DNA from: a virus
IMG/VR virus record: IMGVR_UViG_3300029585_000050
Reading direction: 5' to 3' (one strand)
DNA: 64,000 nucleotides
The translations under genes and the position numbers were made by a program. This document shows, piece after piece, positions 36,583 through 55,693 of this stretch; positions within the stretch are counted from its first letter, which is position 1; every line of letters starts with the position of its first letter. Below the pieces are notes generated by a model. The model made no database searches, was not told the origin of the DNA, and saw only the letters and a program-made list of their open reading frames with translations.

Positions 36583-36840
36583 ATGGGCATCCTTGTAACC
36601 AAATTTTATAAACACGACCGTAAAGAGCATGAAAACCCATATGAGTATATGGTTTCATGGCACCGTGATGGACGTGAATGCCGCCACTTCGCAACCATTG
36701 ATATGTTCGGTCGAAGCATCGATTTCTGTTGCACCAAATACCCATTGACTACCGCTGACATGAAAGCTATCACGGCCAAGATGGATGAAATCTATGAAGA
36801 ATACAAAGAAATGAACCCTTGTGCGGGTATTTTGATATAA
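36583..36840 (+). CDS. hypothetical protein
   Basis: AAGGT SD. Confidence 0.6.
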   Translation: MGILVTKFYKHDRKEHENPYEYMVSWHRDGRECRHFATIDMFGRSIDFCCTKYPLTTADMKAITAKMDEIYEEYKEMNPCAGILI

Positions 36841-37472
36841 TGTTGCATAATGTAGATGTCATTGTGACAATCGGTAAGATTGGTGACACGTCGAAACTTG
36901 CTAATGACTTCGCTCATATCACTGAATTGGATGATGTGGAATGGCTTTCTAGTGTTCTTATGGTTTCCATGGACGAAGCAAAGGCAATCAATGACCAATT
37001 GACCGCCACCAAGAATGTACCGACTTTCACTTTGGAAATACCAATGTCGTATATTCAATTGGCCAGATACACGGCTAAGCGTCGATGCGAAAACTTACAT
37101 AACTATTGGAAGTTTCCGAACGTCGTGAGACATAAAGACCGATACAATGATAAAGCCAATAGTCGGGCGTTTGATGCCGCCTTGGGTGATGACGAATACA
37201 AAATTAAGAAGCTATTCGCCAAGCTTGGTATTGGCCATGAGACTGATATGGCAACCATCATTTCTGACCACTTCACCGAATTACTCAACGGTATAACGAC
37301 TGACCGAAGAGAACAAGAGCGTAAGTTTGCAATGAAAGCATACTGTTACCTAAACACGGCTTTGATTGAAACCGAAGGCGGTGATGACCGAAACGGTAAA
37401 AACCTTAAAGACCGAATCGAAAACGTGGTTGATGGCTATAATAAAATCATCACAGGTAAGAAAAATGATTGA
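36840..37472 (+). CDS. two-domain hypothetical protein; C-terminal domain paralogous to the next gene
   Basis: ORF 36819..37472; start moved. Confidence 0.65.
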   Translation: MLHNVDVIVTIGKIGDTSKLANDFAHITELDDVEWLSSVLMVSMDEAKAINDQLTATKNVPTFTLEIPMSYIQLARYTAKRRCENLHNYWKFPNVVRHKDRYNDKANSRAFDAALGDDEYKIKKLFAKLGIGHETDMATIISDHFTELLNGITTDRREQERKFAMKAYCYLNTALIETEGGDDRNGKNLKDRIENVVDGYNKIITGKKND

Positions 37473-37737
37473 TGAATATAATATCAAGGCGGTGTTCGAC
37501 AAGCACGGTATCGACAATGATGAATTGATACTAGACCTTAATGAACACTTCGACCGATTTGCCACCGCCTACATGGTCGGCGTTGATGAACAAGAAAAAG
37601 GTTTCGCTGTAGAGGCTTCTTCTTATCTTTACACGGCTTTAGTGCAAACACGAACGGGTAAAGACAAAGATGGTAATACATTGGAAGACCGAATTCGCGA
37701 AATAGCTGAAGCTTACTCAATAATGGCAGAAGACTAA
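37465..37737 (+). CDS. hypothetical protein, paralog of the upstream C-terminal domain
   Basis: ORF 37366..37737; start moved to 37465. Confidence 0.65.
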   Translation: MIDEYNIKAVFDKHGIDNDELILDLNEHFDRFATAYMVGVDEQEKGFAVEASSYLYTALVQTRTGKDKDGNTLEDRIREIAEAYSIMAED

Positions 37738-37952: not shown

Positions 37953-38193
37953 ATCATTAATGTGCCCCAAGTGCGGCAATAAAACCTTATCATTGTGTGA
38001 CCATTTCTATGTGTGTTCGACATGTGAGTCTACATATCCCTCTTATGATGACAGTGCCGTCTTCTGGGATTTAGATGAAATGAAACGTATCATTGAAGAT
38101 GAAAGACGTTACACGGTTCCCAATAATTTAGAAACCTATGACGATTTCGTCGAATGGTTAAACGACCCAGATGTGAAACCAGATGGACATTGA
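37945..38193 (+). CDS. zinc-ribbon protein
   Basis: CPKCG..VCSTC. Confidence 0.6.
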   Translation: MSESLMCPKCGNKTLSLCDHFYVCSTCESTYPSYDDSAVFWDLDEMKRIIEDERRYTVPNNLETYDDFVEWLNDPDVKPDGH

Positions 38194-38401
38194 ATCAATA
38201 GAAAAAATACAAATAAGCAAGGACGAAAAGCTTTTAATCAGAGTTGACGTTACACACTTAGCTGCCAGTGAGCAGATGGGATACCTGAAGGATGTTTACA
38301 AATTCTTCTCAACTAAGCTAGGTGTCGGTGACTCGAAAATATTAGTAGTACCATCGGTGATTACCGTTGAGGCTTTGGAGATAGATGATGATTCCGAATA
38401 A
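38183..38401 (+). CDS. small protein, paralog of 55475..55693
   Basis: Shared I.K..IS.DE.L.I.VD and KI..VPS pattern. Confidence 0.6.
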   Translation: MDIESIEKIQISKDEKLLIRVDVTHLAASEQMGYLKDVYKFFSTKLGVGDSKILVVPSVITVEALEIDDDSE

Positions 38402-42173: not shown

Positions 42174-43586
42174 ATGCAATTTAAACCAGTAAGCCGTGCA
42201 AACGTAACCACACCAATGATTCACTTTTATAAAGGTGAAGCCGACGAACGTCTACAGAAGTTCATTGATGACGGTATGTTTAATACTGAAGTGGTGGGTT
42301 CAGCATTTGTTGATTATTATGATGAACACCAAGTATCAAACCGTGCAATCTATGTGAACATCGGCGACCGTGATGAATTCAAAGCACACACTGGCAACAT
42401 CGACAAAGTAGCTAAAGGGATTGTCGCTTTATTCAACGACAAGTGTACCGAGATAACTTTATGCCTTTCATGTCTTAATTCAGACCTTGATGCCGAAGAC
42501 CTTATTACAGCATTAGCAATTGCTGATTACGAATATGACGTTGAATTCAATGACAATGACGATAAGCGCACAATTTTTTATGTAGAAGATGTCAATGGTC
42601 AATTTGAGGATGTCGTTCACCGTGGTTTAGCTACTGCAAATGGCGTGAACTTCACTCGCTACCTTGGTGACTTACCCGCCAATATCTGTACACCAACCGA
42701 ACTAGCTTCAATAGCATCCAACGAATTGTCCGTTTACAAAAACGTCAAAGTTAATGTGTTAGATGAAGTGAAATGTCGTGAACTTGGTATGAATCTTTTA
42801 ACCAGTGTATCGGACGGTTCTGACGAAGAAGGCAAAGTTATCATTGTGACTTATGATGGTACTGATGAAGAAGAAGCCCTAACACTTGGTTTAGTCGGTA
42901 AAGCCGTGACATTCGACAGTGGTGGTATCAGTATCAAGCCTAGTTCTAAAATGGAAGAAATGAAATACGATATGTGTGGTGGCGCTACTGTATTAGGTAC
43001 AATTCGTGCCTTAGCCGAAGCACAAGTGCCAGTGAATGTTATTGGTATCGTCGGTGCCGTAGAAAACATGCCTAATGGTCGTGCAACAAAGCCTAGTTCT
43101 GTAGTGACTGGTATGTCTGGTCGTACAGTTGAAATCACGAACACTGACGCGGAAGGCCGTCTTGTATTGGCTGACCTATTGACTTACATCGGTGAAATCC
43201 ATGACTGTGATACAGTTATTGACTTGGCCACATTGACTGGTGCATGTTGTGTTGCTCTTGGCGACCACGCGGCGGGTGTATTCTCTCACGATGACCAATT
43301 GGCTCAACAATTAGTTGAAGCGGGTGAAGCAGTGAATGACCGTGCTTGGCGCTTACCAATGTGGGAAGAATACAACAAACAGTTGAAAAGTAAATTCGCT
43401 GATGTGAATAACAGCGCAGGCGGCGGGGCGGGTGCCAGTACGGCGGCTTGCTTCTTAGGTCGTTTCGCCGCTGACTATGATTACACACATGCCCACATGG
43501 ACATCGCGGGTGTAGCATGGGATAAAATGGCCACAGGCCGTCCAGTGAAACTGTTATTGAACTACATCGCAGAACAACGGGTGTAA
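42174..43586 (+). CDS. pepA: leucyl aminopeptidase, M17 family
   Basis: LVGKAVTFDSGGISIK, MKYDMCGGA, VENMPNG, NTDAEGRLVLAD, IDLATLTGA, HMDIAG. Confidence 0.93.
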   Translation: MQFKPVSRANVTTPMIHFYKGEADERLQKFIDDGMFNTEVVGSAFVDYYDEHQVSNRAIYVNIGDRDEFKAHTGNIDKVAKGIVALFNDKCTEITLCLSCLNSDLDAEDLITALAIADYEYDVEFNDNDDKRTIFYVEDVNGQFEDVVHRGLATANGVNFTRYLGDLPANICTPTELASIASNELSVYKNVKVNVLDEVKCRELGMNLLTSVSDGSDEEGKVIIVTYDGTDEEEALTLGLVGKAVTFDSGGISIKPSSKMEEMKYDMCGGATVLGTIRALAEAQVPVNVIGIVGAVENMPNGRATKPSSVVTGMSGRTVEITNTDAEGRLVLADLLTYIGEIHDCDTVIDLATLTGACCVALGDHAAGVFSHDDQLAQQLVEAGEAVNDRAWRLPMWEEYNKQLKSKFADVNNSAGGGAGASTAACFLGRFAADYDYTHAHMDIAGVAWDKMATGRPVKLLLNYIAEQRV

Positions 43587-43908: not shown

Positions 43909-44226
43909 ATGCGTAAAGCGTCTATTGAAGAGTTATATTTAACTCACCTTCCAGTTGAATTCATGGGTTTCACGCCAAAGTATTTTGTTATGGATACCGA
44001 TGGTGTTCAATGGATTTGTCATAATGAACCAAAGTTCGACGGGTATGATTGGGTATTCCAAGAATTCTATGAAATCGGAATCGACGACGAAGATTTAAAA
44101 CATACACCAAAATGTGTGATAGGTTTATCCCCACAAGAATGCATATTTGAAATTGAGGGGTCTGATAGAATCATTGATACCACATCGGGTGAATACAATA
44201 GTGTACAATGGCCACACCTACAATAA
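43909..44226 (+). CDS. hypothetical protein
   Basis: GAGGT SD. Confidence 0.6.
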   Translation: MRKASIEELYLTHLPVEFMGFTPKYFVMDTDGVQWICHNEPKFDGYDWVFQEFYEIGIDDEDLKHTPKCVIGLSPQECIFEIEGSDRIIDTTSGEYNSVQWPHLQ

Positions 44227-44240
44227 TGTTGGGGAACTAT

Positions 44241-45380
44241 ATGTTAAAAGCAATTGATTACGATGATAGCCATGCTGAATTTGAAAGAGGTATAACGGCT
44301 TTCATTGCAGACAAAATTACACCTTACTATGACGAATGGGAAAAACGTGGATACGTTGACCGTGAAATCTGGCGTGAGATGGGTTCAATGGGTATGCTAT
44401 GCCCGAATGTTTCACACGAGTACGGCGGCTTTGACGATTTCAGCTACAACATTGTCGTCAATGAAGCTTTATGCCGTAACTATGCAACATCGCTTGCTGT
44501 AGGTAACGCTATTCACTCTGACATCGTTGCAACCTACATTGAGACATATGGCACCAAAGAGCAAAAGGAAACATGGCTACCGTCCATGGTTTCTGGCGAC
44601 GTGTTGGCCAGTCTTGGTATGACAGAACCTAATGCGGGTTCAGATTTAGGTGCTGTATCAACCAAAGGCGTTTACGACGGTGATGATATAGTCATTTCTG
44701 GTCAAAAGGTATTCATCACAAATGGTTACTTGGCCGATATGATGCTTACCGCAGTCAGAACAGAGGGTGAAGGCTATGGTGGCGTAAGTTTAGTAATCAT
44801 CGACTTGAATGATGACAACGTTTCACGAACCCTATTGGATAAGATTGGTCTTAAATCACAAGACACCGCTGAAATTTATTTGGAAGAGGTGCGTGTACCT
44901 AAATCGAATATCCTTGGGCAAGCGGGTCATGGCTTCTACATGATGATGAATGAATTACCACGCGAACGTCTTTCCTTGTGCATCGGTGCCGTGGCATCTG
45001 CCCGTCAAATCCTGAATGACACCATCGTCTACGTTAAAGAGCGTGAAGCGTTCGGTCGTCCTATCGCAAAATTCCAAAACACCCAGTTTGAATTGGCTGA
45101 TATGGATTCTTCATTAATGGCGGCTGAAACATTTACCCGTCACTGTGCGGCATTGGATTTAAAGGGTAAGCTAACTACTGAGATGGCATCACGTCTTAAA
45201 GTGTTCACCACTGACCTTCAATGCGATGTCACTGACCGTTGTTTACAGTTACATGGTGGTTATGGCTTCATGCGCGAATATAATGTCGCACGGGCTTATT
45301 GTGACGGTCGTGTGCAGAAGATTTACGGCGGAACCAATGAAATCATGAAAGTTTTAATTGCTCGTGAGTTGTTGAAATGA
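44241..45380 (+). CDS. acyl-CoA dehydrogenase
   Basis: GMTEPNAGSDL, ISGQKVFITNG, KIGLKSQDTAEI, REAFGRPI.KFQ, LQLHGGYG, IYGGTNEI; start moved from 44208 to 44241. Confidence 0.95.
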   Translation: MLKAIDYDDSHAEFERGITAFIADKITPYYDEWEKRGYVDREIWREMGSMGMLCPNVSHEYGGFDDFSYNIVVNEALCRNYATSLAVGNAIHSDIVATYIETYGTKEQKETWLPSMVSGDVLASLGMTEPNAGSDLGAVSTKGVYDGDDIVISGQKVFITNGYLADMMLTAVRTEGEGYGGVSLVIIDLNDDNVSRTLLDKIGLKSQDTAEIYLEEVRVPKSNILGQAGHGFYMMMNELPRERLSLCIGAVASARQILNDTIVYVKEREAFGRPIAKFQNTQFELADMDSSLMAAETFTRHCAALDLKGKLTTEMASRLKVFTTDLQCDVTDRCLQLHGGYGFMREYNVARAYCDGRVQKIYGGTNEIMKVLIARELLK

Positions 45381-45844
45381 GTGCGCCGTCGTATGCTATC
45401 TATTACAAAGATGGTGAACAAGTTGGTAGGGGATTCATTAACGTCGGGCTATACTATGACGAAGAGCGCCTTTACCACCAGATTAATGCCCATGGTATTG
45501 ACTACGATGAAGTGTTTGCATACGACACCACCTTCACCCGCGAATTCATTGATGAGCGTTTAGGGTTACTGTTTGCTTTCGAGAAATGTCGAATTTATGC
45601 AGAGAGTGAAACACGAAAATCATTTAGTTCTAAATTGGTTGACGGCGAACGTTACTATTACCTGAAAAACAAATACGAAGAACCTACGCCAATTAAGGTT
45701 CCACTTATTAAAAAGGTGATGCCTGATATTATGGCTAGTGATATATGTTCAGTGCAACCAATGACGGGTGACGTTGCCGAAATCAACCGTATTTCTTTCA
45801 ACGCAGCGAAGAATGTTTACGAAGATGACAATGGAAAAAATTGA
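45377..45844 (+). CDS. hypothetical protein with C-terminal gp23 Gol-region-like segment
   Basis: PLIKKVMPDIMASDICSVQPMTG. Confidence 0.6.
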   Translation: MSAPSYAIYYKDGEQVGRGFINVGLYYDEERLYHQINAHGIDYDEVFAYDTTFTREFIDERLGLLFAFEKCRIYAESETRKSFSSKLVDGERYYYLKNKYEEPTPIKVPLIKKVMPDIMASDICSVQPMTGDVAEINRISFNAAKNVYEDDNGKN

Positions 45845-46126: not shown

Positions 46127-46653
46127 TGATTGCATGGCATAAGTGTTCAAGAATAACACAAGATTACCCATTAAAAGCTAGTGGGTATTACGAGAAAGTG
46201 GAAGACGGTAAGCCTACTGGCATCATCGTCAAAGACTTCACTGCTTACCCCGATTGTGAAACATATGATTGGGCGCACATTGAAAAAATAACCAGTGGCA
46301 ACACCGAAAAGGTCGCAGTGATTGAAAACCAAATTAAAAGCGAAGAAGTAGAAGATATGACTAATACATTAAAGACCGACTCATTAGAAGTAACATTGAG
46401 CGGTGATTCTGTAGTCATCACACCGTCAATTGAAACCAAAATCGAAACAGTCACCCAAGAAGTCTTATATGACATCTGGAAAGTTGACTATGAATGGACT
46501 GGTGACGATGAAACGGTTTATTGGGCTAAGTCTAAAAAAGAGGCTAAAGGGTTTAAAGAATTCTTAGAGAAGAAATTCACTGGTCACAAAGTAACCATCA
46601 AAGCAATCACTAAATTATCAATTTGCCAAGTAGAGAAGATTGAAATTGACTAA
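46126..46653 (+). CDS. hypothetical protein
   Basis: TAATG coupling. Confidence 0.6.
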   Translation: MIAWHKCSRITQDYPLKASGYYEKVEDGKPTGIIVKDFTAYPDCETYDWAHIEKITSGNTEKVAVIENQIKSEEVEDMTNTLKTDSLEVTLSGDSVVITPSIETKIETVTQEVLYDIWKVDYEWTGDDETVYWAKSKKEAKGFKEFLEKKFTGHKVTIKAITKLSICQVEKIEID

Positions 46654-47812
46654 ACTACGTTGGATAGTACAAGAGAACCTTTATAACGAACAGGGTTATG
46701 CTCGTTTCATTGAGGCGTTGATTCGTCTTGAGTGCGATTACATGGTTGTTAAAGTTGTTCCATTCGTGAATAAAGTTTTGCCTGAAGGATTTGATTCATG
46801 GTCAGACGACTACGAAAGTGCTATTGACCCAATCACCGACGACAGTTACCCAATGTTTGTTTGTGGGGCGACGACGCTTACTAATATCACATTGGAACGA
46901 GGTTGGGTGCCGGGTAGTTTTATTAACGATAACCTACATTATTCTAAGTGGAAAGAGAATTGGGGCGATAACCTATTGAACCCAGATTCTAAAGTGGGTG
47001 TCGCGGGTGACTTCTTGGATATACCACGGGGCGATTATTTCGTAAGGCCAACTGAGGATACTAAATCATTCAGTGGCACCGTCTTCACTGGCGACCAATT
47101 CAAACAATGGGCTATTGGTATTAGTGACGTTGTTGAGACAGAATATTCACCGTTACATCATAATACAGAAATTGTGGTTTCTTCGATGAAGACCATTTAC
47201 AACGAATGTCGTTTGTTCATTGTCGATGGTGAAGTGGTGACGGCTAGTATGTATAAGGCGGGTAATCGCGTCCAAGGAAACCCAGACGTTGACCAACGCT
47301 ATTTGGATTTCGCTAAAGAGATGACAGACATCTGGGCACCCGCCGAAGGTTTCGTCATGGATGTGGCTGATACCCCAAATGGACTAAAGATAATTGAGGT
47401 GAATAACCTTAATTCCGCAGGCTTCTATGCTTGCGACACCTATAAAATAGTAAACGCCATCGAAGAATGGTGGGAAAGGAAATGCAGTAAAATGAACAAC
47501 AATGATGAACTTATTAATTTCGTTGAAGAGTTAAGAGCCGTTCTACCATGTTACCAGACTCGCGAAACGGAAACATACCGTCGTCTTGCCATCATCAATG
47601 GCTTAAATTGCACAAAGAACGATACCATTATCATTTCTAAGAATTCATTATTTAAGAAAGCGGCTAACACCGTCTTAGAAACAGAATTGGTGAACAACTT
47701 AGATACCATCATCTATTCCGATGTTGTCGATGACGATGAAGTGGTAATTGGAACACCAAATGATGCGGAAGCACGTATCGTTAAAATTACAACCGACTAC
47801 GAACCATGGTAA
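46640..47812 (+). CDS. ATP-grasp protein (R2K/DUF4343-like) with C-terminal extension
   Basis: FVRP.EDTKSFSG, ECRLFIVDG, FVMDVA, KIIEVNN.NSAGFY. Confidence 0.75.
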   Translation: MKLTKLRWIVQENLYNEQGYARFIEALIRLECDYMVVKVVPFVNKVLPEGFDSWSDDYESAIDPITDDSYPMFVCGATTLTNITLERGWVPGSFINDNLHYSKWKENWGDNLLNPDSKVGVAGDFLDIPRGDYFVRPTEDTKSFSGTVFTGDQFKQWAIGISDVVETEYSPLHHNTEIVVSSMKTIYNECRLFIVDGEVVTASMYKAGNRVQGNPDVDQRYLDFAKEMTDIWAPAEGFVMDVADTPNGLKIIEVNNLNSAGFYACDTYKIVNAIEEWWERKCSKMNNNDELINFVEELRAVLPCYQTRETETYRRLAIINGLNCTKNDTIIISKNSLFKKAANTVLETELVNNLDTIIYSDVVDDDEVVIGTPNDAEARIVKITTDYEPW

Positions 47813-50338: not shown

Positions 50339-50740
50339 ATGTCTCGTGAATTTTTAGAAGAAACTATTCAAGAAAAAGGTCTTACCACTGCGCCTAGAAT
50401 AACACCAACCGACATCGAAAATTGTATCGTCGATGAAAAATACCATGTTTTCGAAGGCACCACATTCACAGCTTGCCTACTTACTTTAAGAAATGGCTAC
50501 AATGTAATTGGTGAGTCGGCTTGTGCATCACCAGAGAACTTCGATGCGGAATTGGGTCGAAGCTTAGCTAGAAGCTCGGCTGTGAACAAAATTTGGGCAC
50601 TTGAAGGTTATTTACTGAAAGAGAAGCTTTATCGCGAGAAAAAGAAAAACATCTTCTATATTGACTTACCAGATAACATTTCGCCCCAAGAAGCTCAGAT
50701 GTTGGTTTCTAATGCAATGGAAGAACTTAAAAGTAAATGA
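50339..50740 (+). CDS. Phage_gp49_66 family protein with C-terminal extension
   Basis: PRIT..DIE, T.CLLTLRNGY.V.GESACASPENFDAELGR..A, IW.LEGYLL. Confidence 0.8.
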   Translation: MSREFLEETIQEKGLTTAPRITPTDIENCIVDEKYHVFEGTTFTACLLTLRNGYNVIGESACASPENFDAELGRSLARSSAVNKIWALEGYLLKEKLYREKKKNIFYIDLPDNISPQEAQMLVSNAMEELKSK

Positions 50741-51153
50741 GTAAAGAAATAGAATTAATACAATCCCACGGTGAAGACGGTCATAGTCTTTATGGATACT
50801 ACCTTGGTACATCATACGAAGGCGACGAAAGTTTTTTTCAACACCTTTTAGATGATGGTGACATGAATGTCAAAGATATTATTAATAATGTCATTGCCAA
50901 CGTCAATGAAGCCATCACTGATTACAACAAGCGCCAAGCTAATGCCTTTGAAAAAGGTTCTATTATTCGACACGGTAAAGGTGAGACTGCCTTGATGCAA
51001 GTTGATACGTGCGTGAAGGATGACGAAGGTAATCACCGATACTATGGAACCCATTGCATGGGTGGACTATGTGGTGCTTATCACCTAGATTGTAAATCCG
51101 CCACTGACGATGACTTTTCTATTTGGGAAGAGAATGACAGTTGGAGAAGTTAA
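50737..51153 (+). CDS. hypothetical protein; C-terminal domain shared with 51505..51939
   Basis: ATGA overlap; internal paralogy. Confidence 0.65.
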   Translation: MSKEIELIQSHGEDGHSLYGYYLGTSYEGDESFFQHLLDDGDMNVKDIINNVIANVNEAITDYNKRQANAFEKGSIIRHGKGETALMQVDTCVKDDEGNHRYYGTHCMGGLCGAYHLDCKSATDDDFSIWEENDSWRS

Positions 51154-51504: not shown

Positions 51505-51939
51505 ATGTCTTGCACATGTGATATATGCGGAAACCCTTATAAAATCGATTTGACCTTACCAGACAAGTTCTGGAAGCTCGTTTCGCCCACTGGTAACAGT
51601 AAAGGTAACGTTTGTGGCGTGTGTATAATGAAAAAGTTAGAATCTTTTGAACAATACGGGTACATGACGGTCAATGATATGGTTGTCGGTGATGCCCACG
51701 AAGAAAGAAACCGTTTAATAAAGAACGGTACACTTGCTCGATATGGAATTGGGCCGACTTCGTTGATGCTTATAACTGAAGGTATAAATTCACCAGACGG
51801 TAATCATACATATCATGGTATTCAATGCCGTGGTACTAGGCATACAGCGAAACATAACGAGCTACGTCCGCCATCGAAGAAAGACTTAGCCACATGGGAA
51901 GAATACACCCATTATAGAGAACCCCAAAAAGAATTATGA
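51505..51939 (+). CDS. zinc-finger protein plus shared C-terminal domain
   Basis: CDICG..VCGVC. Confidence 0.65.
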   Translation: MSCTCDICGNPYKIDLTLPDKFWKLVSPTGNSKGNVCGVCIMKKLESFEQYGYMTVNDMVVGDAHEERNRLIKNGTLARYGIGPTSLMLITEGINSPDGNHTYHGIQCRGTRHTAKHNELRPPSKKDLATWEEYTHYREPQKEL

Positions 51940-55474: not shown

Positions 55475-55693
55475 ATGTCAGAGAAATTCGATATAGAAGA
55501 TGTAAAGAAACTGTCAATTAGTGATGACGAAGCATTAGTTATTTCAGTTGACATCGGTGAATTGTCTAGGCATAAAGCCAATGAATACATGCATAAAGTT
55601 ATGAAAATGTTCAAAGAAGGTTTACCAGACACTAAAATTTTCATTGTACCTAGTACAACCGAATTAACAGTAATCAATAACACTCAAGAATAG
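55475..55693 (+). CDS. small protein resembling a T4 gp20 portal segment
   Basis: VISVDIGELSRHKANEYMHKVMKMFK. Confidence 0.6.
   Translation: MSEKFDIEDVKKLSISDDEALVISVDIGELSRHKANEYMHKVMKMFKEGLPDTKIFIVPSTTELTVINNTQE

Follow-up and report, generated by a model that had tools for sequence, protein, structure and literature searches.

The major capsid protein of T4, gp23 (PF07068), adopts the full HK97 fold over about 400-520 aa. In the Gol/Lit/EF-Tu exclusion system, which belongs to the e14 prophage, the Gol peptide of gp23 binds domains II/III of EF-Tu-GDP. Counter-defence by competition or mimicry is known from other phage proteins: DSAD1 acts in this way against DSR2, and Ocr and Arn act as DNA mimics; to our knowledge, these three are not homologous fragments of the trigger itself. 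The protein described here would follow the same proposed logic, a small accessory protein occupying the site meant for the trigger, an activity that we infer in its case. The function of Gol resides within a 20-residue core in the most conserved region of gp23, 13 core residues are needed for Lit activation, and the free peptide activates Lit rather than blocking it (PMC3014915). Lit and CapRel sense the capsid by short motifs; Avs7, Avs8 and Avs10 instead wrap the whole fold (10.64898/2026.01.04.697583) and, since they need it, should not be decoyed by a peptide. In the unexpanded head the first ordered residue of gp23 is L106, and the part preceding it probably contacts the scaffold (PMC9546572).

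The gene under study lies in a 64,000-nt stretch of viral DNA, analysed as a whole and hereafter called the window. The DNA is that of a large phage, and around the gene small genes and tRNAs are arrayed on a single strand. The gene encodes 155 residues in three parts:

45377..45844, + strand: 155-aa accessory gene of the PHROG 12830 family, consisting of head domain, helical stalk and gp23 Gol-like motif (ORF; called gene in the JGI contig)
45377..45547, + strand: head domain, residues 1-57, hairpin, helix, hairpin, with MSxPS, FxNxGW and YG/Y motifs (AF2 pLDDT 90-98; head-only members)
45539..45691, + strand: variable stalk, residues 55-105, in which the long helix (55-82) precedes a hairpin insert and a linker of low confidence (AF2 secondary structure)
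45692..45799, + strand: gp23-derived segment, residues 106-141, equivalent to T4 gp23 94-129, that is, Gol peptide 94-122 and the start of the next strand (homology; pLDDT about 55-62)
45722..45763, + strand: conserved core, residues 116-129, equivalent to T4 P104-M117, P..(I/M)A.(D/E)I.(G/S)VQPM (61% mean pairwise identity, 28 members)

The start of the ORF overlaps the stop of an acyl-CoA dehydrogenase gene (ATGA), its stop is separated by 3 nt from the start of the next gene, and a sigma-70 scan of this region of the window scored at shuffle level. The dehydrogenase (44208-45380, +) is found among phage genes, as are a full-length leucyl aminopeptidase scoring above the NCBIfam cut-off (42174-43586, +) and, two genes downstream of the 155-aa gene, an R2K-clade ATP-grasp protein (46640-47812, +). 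Five tRNA genes (Met, two Thr-TGT, Gly-GCC and Gly-TCC) lie between 14407 and 34534.

The first-pass annotation had recognised a Gol-like segment at 45698-45775, and this proved to be real. The Pfam Gp23 profile matches residues 104-144 with an E-value of 1.1e-6 (28.8 bits, cut-off 24.4), over profile positions 5-45 of 376 only, and a capsid HMM of our own, built from 74 full-length gp23, detects the segment at E 1.5e-11 over all window ORFs. The motif scores 44.6, the best of 200 shuffles 5.5, so that the similarity, whose lack of significance would have undone the proposal, is well beyond chance. The T4 Gol sequence given in the first-pass annotation is consistent with the solved gp23 chains. 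The 24-residue segment corresponds to residues 108-131, encoded at 45698-45769 (+), the end noted earlier adding two codons, and aligns without gaps to T4 gp23 93-124 of the solved structures with 9 identities. The match was said to cover just this region; it is indeed derived from gp23, but it extends about 10 residues more, to about 45799-45808. Identity is higher to non-T4 gp23 types (16/36) than to the T4 type (9/36); the gp23 reference set is the output of a metagenome scan, nearly all of it true gp23 genes. A PSSM comparison between a T4-type and a jumbo-type origin, based on just 2 distinct jumbo-type motifs, carried no information. The Merlin and Aeh1 members share 12-13 of 18 residues with T4 Gol. 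On sequence grounds the 155-aa protein is homologous to gp23 94-122, and Gol-like working is a candidate function only.

The whole protein belongs to a catalogued family. PHROG 12830 (Aeh1p187, phiAS5 ORF311, Merlin284) has the same three-part layout and matches residues 1-136 over positions 1-125 of 128 with an E-value of 3.4e-22, covering head, stalk and motif; the head alone matches at E 1.9e-14. The query is a distant full-length homologue, with 28-35% identity and a hairpin insert in the stalk. Full-length homologues occur in the Aeromonas phages Aeh1, phiAS5, PX29 and Ah1, the Citrobacter phages Merlin, Moon, CF1, Ursula and Ci1 and the Vibrio phage D479, with about 25 additional metagenomic proteins; their database entries read either 'major head protein' or 'hypothetical'. 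A 1400-aa repeat protein (P0003) was rejected as a spurious match. The gene is located in tRNA clusters in Aeh1, D479 and Ci1 and between arn and asiA in Merlin and Ursula. No T4 late promoter was found within 800 nt upstream of any member, and early-type promoters lie 1-2.7 kb upstream in six; judged from these promoters, the product is probably made early, before the capsid protein, unlike gp23 in T4, which is late. In Cronobacter phage S13 an 88-aa head-only member (L096:1501-1767) occupies the locus at which Ci1 has its motif-bearing gene and so offers a natural control; RefSeq calls it 'major head protein', although there is no capsid-derived sequence in it. The member from Aeromonas phage Ahp1_CNU-2021 (P0017, L132) carries an extra domain of about 130 residues past the motif. 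In literature searches covering mimics and truncated decoys of the capsid as well as the Aeh1 paralogue, none of the papers listed dealt with such proteins, judging by title or abstract.

The N-terminus had been described as unrelated. This holds with respect to gp23, to which it shows no kinship, but it is itself a conserved folded domain of about 57 residues travelling with the motif, and it is not arbitrary, because the same head also occurs alone in other phages. These stand-alone forms are PHROG 5175 and 13244, from KVP40-like, Marfa/CC31-like and Aeromonas phage 31-like phages, together with the S13 protein. Their head domain is the same as that of the query by profile and predicted fold, and, unlike the query, the representatives examined have no stalk-plus-motif; the motif was likewise not present in the KVP40-like and Marfa/CC31-like representatives that were translated. 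Two AF2 models concur on a confident head of about 57 residues, a long helix and a motif of lower confidence (pLDDT about 60), and nothing in either monomer model suggests that the motif packs on the head. In fold searches the best Foldseek hit for the head had an E-value of 0.68, and the best VIA match among PDB structures reached Z 4.2 (rmsd 2.7, 57 aligned); neither assigned the head to a solved fold. Atlas feature matches of 0.76-0.89 to small viral proteins, partly with Gp23, serve as leads only. Gol-like motifs are also found on unrelated heads (P0015, L015); kinship of the query head to that of P0015 was unsupported (probability 0.4%).

Among 38 non-redundant head carriers the motif is present in 29, weak in 2 and absent in 7, a ratio biased upward because carriers were collected with full-length queries; among isolates, head-only records outnumber fused ones. 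Mean pairwise identity among 28 motif bearers is 61% for the 14-residue core, 41% for the head and 14% for the stalk, while the part equivalent to T4 94-103 is less conserved (20%). Pooled over five independent pairs, dN/dS comes to 0.17 in the motif and 0.23 in both head and stalk; the motif value, which derives from few differences (9 non-synonymous and 14 synonymous), is near that of the rest of the gene. The motifs have no excess of DNA identity to the carrier's own gp23 over other gp23 genes, and gene conversion is therefore not the cause of their conservation. In T4 numbering, the kept residues are P104, A108, D/E110, I/L111, G/S113, V114, Q115, P116 and M117, with mostly basic residues at 100-101; they are those invariant in all gp23, and this best-kept part falls inside the 29-residue T4 Gol peptide. 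It was earlier suggested to check whether homologues keep exactly this segment. Largely they do, the Gol core being the best-conserved part and under purifying selection, with several members ending 3-14 residues past that core and nine within 13 residues of it. Two family members (P0029 and P0008) carry two tandem copies.

Unlike the T4 Gol region, the motif belongs to a small accessory protein, at whose end it stands, instead of to the capsid protein, and its residues differ as well. Position 109 is aromatic in 31 of 34 capsids and in none of 28 mini-proteins, jumbo-type capsids likewise having no aromatic residue there; C112 is mostly replaced by another hydrophobic residue; and the turn past M117 is mostly lost. 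The motif is also optional, being lost or decayed in several lineages: the closest relative of the query (P0002) has a decayed copy in which VQPM is gone, and on the head tree the motif-less members require at least 3 and up to 6 label changes, a tree of 66 columns with no root, on which gains and losses cannot be ordered.

A terminal motif that is unpacked, conserved, sometimes duplicated and optional seems to behave like a ligand for another protein. Our best reading, held tentatively, is that the protein imitates nascent capsid protein so as to bind a host factor by which the Gol region is recognised. The mini-protein would be made ahead of the capsid protein, and its motif would serve as ligand for a partner recognising the 104-117 stretch in nascent, unassembled gp23, most likely a host reader of the Gol region such as EF-Tu, a Lit-like sensor or another sensor of short motifs. 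It would occupy this partner without triggering, so that capsid-triggered defence is dampened; the constant loss of the aromatic F109 is a candidate silencing change. The head may have a function of its own, the motif being an addition that is retained with hosts possessing the partner. A silent decoy is favoured because an active copy made early would harm the phage in a Lit host. The position beside arn and asiA in Moonviruses fits counter-defence. The decoy or antagonist role proposed in the first-pass annotation thus gains from the conservation of the core and its placement in an accessory region, but the conserved residues are not specific to EF-Tu and the motif is often lost. As these residues are kept in every gp23, motif conservation does not single out EF-Tu, and as they start the ordered capsid core, a capsid partner fits equally well. 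When the Merlin member (27-row alignment) was modelled in complex with E. coli EF-Tu and GDP, three runs scored 0.01, 0.34 and 0.00, which weighs neither way.

Other capsid- and portal-like pieces are found in the window. A 272-aa reduced gp23-like protein (25895-26713, +; Pfam E 1.1e-5) has its own degenerate VQP motif and is colinear with the jumbo-type capsid core, with 24% identity over 155 columns; tblastn gave no match to it among phage isolates. Two 72-aa paralogues of PHROG 23805 (55475-55693 and 38183-38401, +) are 41% identical, the former weakly matching a conserved stretch of the T4 portal at a Pfam E-value of 4.5e-4, under the cut-off. The tail of a gp49_66 protein (50339-50740) is similar to them by eye and has no portal match. 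Two more paralogous small-gene pairs occur at 36819-37472 / 37366-37737 and 50737-51153 / 51505-51939. In five isolates carrying the PHROG 12830 family, no portal fragments like those of the window were found. The other capsid and portal fragments have no known link to EF-Tu, which weakens the first-pass interpretation. It is rather unlikely, in our estimate, that T4-like phages pre-make, on small carrier domains, non-activating copies of the capsid motif read by host sensors, with this family, as the form present in cultured phages, blocking Lit-type or other capsid-motif sensing by competition and the portal and capsid fragments of the window belonging to the same decoy arsenal.

A close rival to a host-factor mimic is a partner in capsid assembly. 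The motif might bind phage head-assembly components in trans, such as the groove of folding gp23 that is the native 106-117 site, the scaffold or the chaperonin, and so modulate the phage's own assembly, bring the head domain to proheads or poison a co-infecting T4-like phage. We regard this as possible, if doubtful. It accounts for the capsid-invariant nature of the kept residues; the segment spans both the N-terminal region of gp23 that presumably touches the scaffold and the residues at which its ordered part begins (PMC9546572), and the reduced gp23 and portal-fragment proteins of the window suggest a general use of head-protein pieces. However, the motif does not follow the carrier's own gp23, the gene has no late promoter and is remote from the head genes, and of the two halves it is the one presumed to touch the scaffold (94-103) that is conserved less well.

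The two readings that follow are less likely than a host-factor or an assembly partner. The motif could have been captured from a capsid protein and now, selected only weakly or at intervals, be a passenger on a working head domain, as the repeated label changes on the head tree, the decay in P0002 and the common head-only forms would allow. This is improbable in our view: VQP, A108, D/E110 and I/L111 persist among members whose heads share only about 40% identity and whose stalks diverge far more, the motif has a low dN/dS, and gene conversion offers no explanation. At least as improbable is that the motif serves the mini-protein itself, in self-association or stability, with no outside partner tied to its capsid origin. 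The long, amphipathic-looking stalk and the similar dN/dS along the whole gene are consistent with such a role, but the head folds confidently and exists with no motif, the motif is of low confidence and makes no head contact in the monomer models, and similar motifs sit on unrelated heads. Finally, the RefSeq and PHROG label 'major head protein' implies a major head gene that has been truncated or broken, a reading that can be dismissed for the family: at 155 aa the protein is far short of a full HK97 fold, its gp23 match spans only about 40 residues, its stop position and head are conserved, it lies in an accessory-gene array in the window and remote from gp23 in all complete carriers, no gp23 continuation follows the ORF in the window, where the capsid HMM run over all ORFs detected no full gp23, and intact gp23 and gp24-like genes are present elsewhere in 9/9 complete carrier genomes tested.

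The family is thus an old module, neither a capsid remnant nor a copy of the carrier's own gp23, and it is selected and catalogued but mislabelled. The label 'major head protein' of PHROG 12830, borne even by the motif-less S13 protein, is an artefact of a 40-residue match and, at minimum, needs correcting. The cultured carriers (Merlin, Moon, Aeh1 and PX29) and motif-less controls such as S13 make the decoy question directly testable. Should the mimic prove silent, the phage would have made a counter-defence out of the very trigger; its natural variants, for example at position 109, would form a series separating EF-Tu binding from Lit activation, and this would bear on the long-standing question of why gp23 should bind EF-Tu in the first place.
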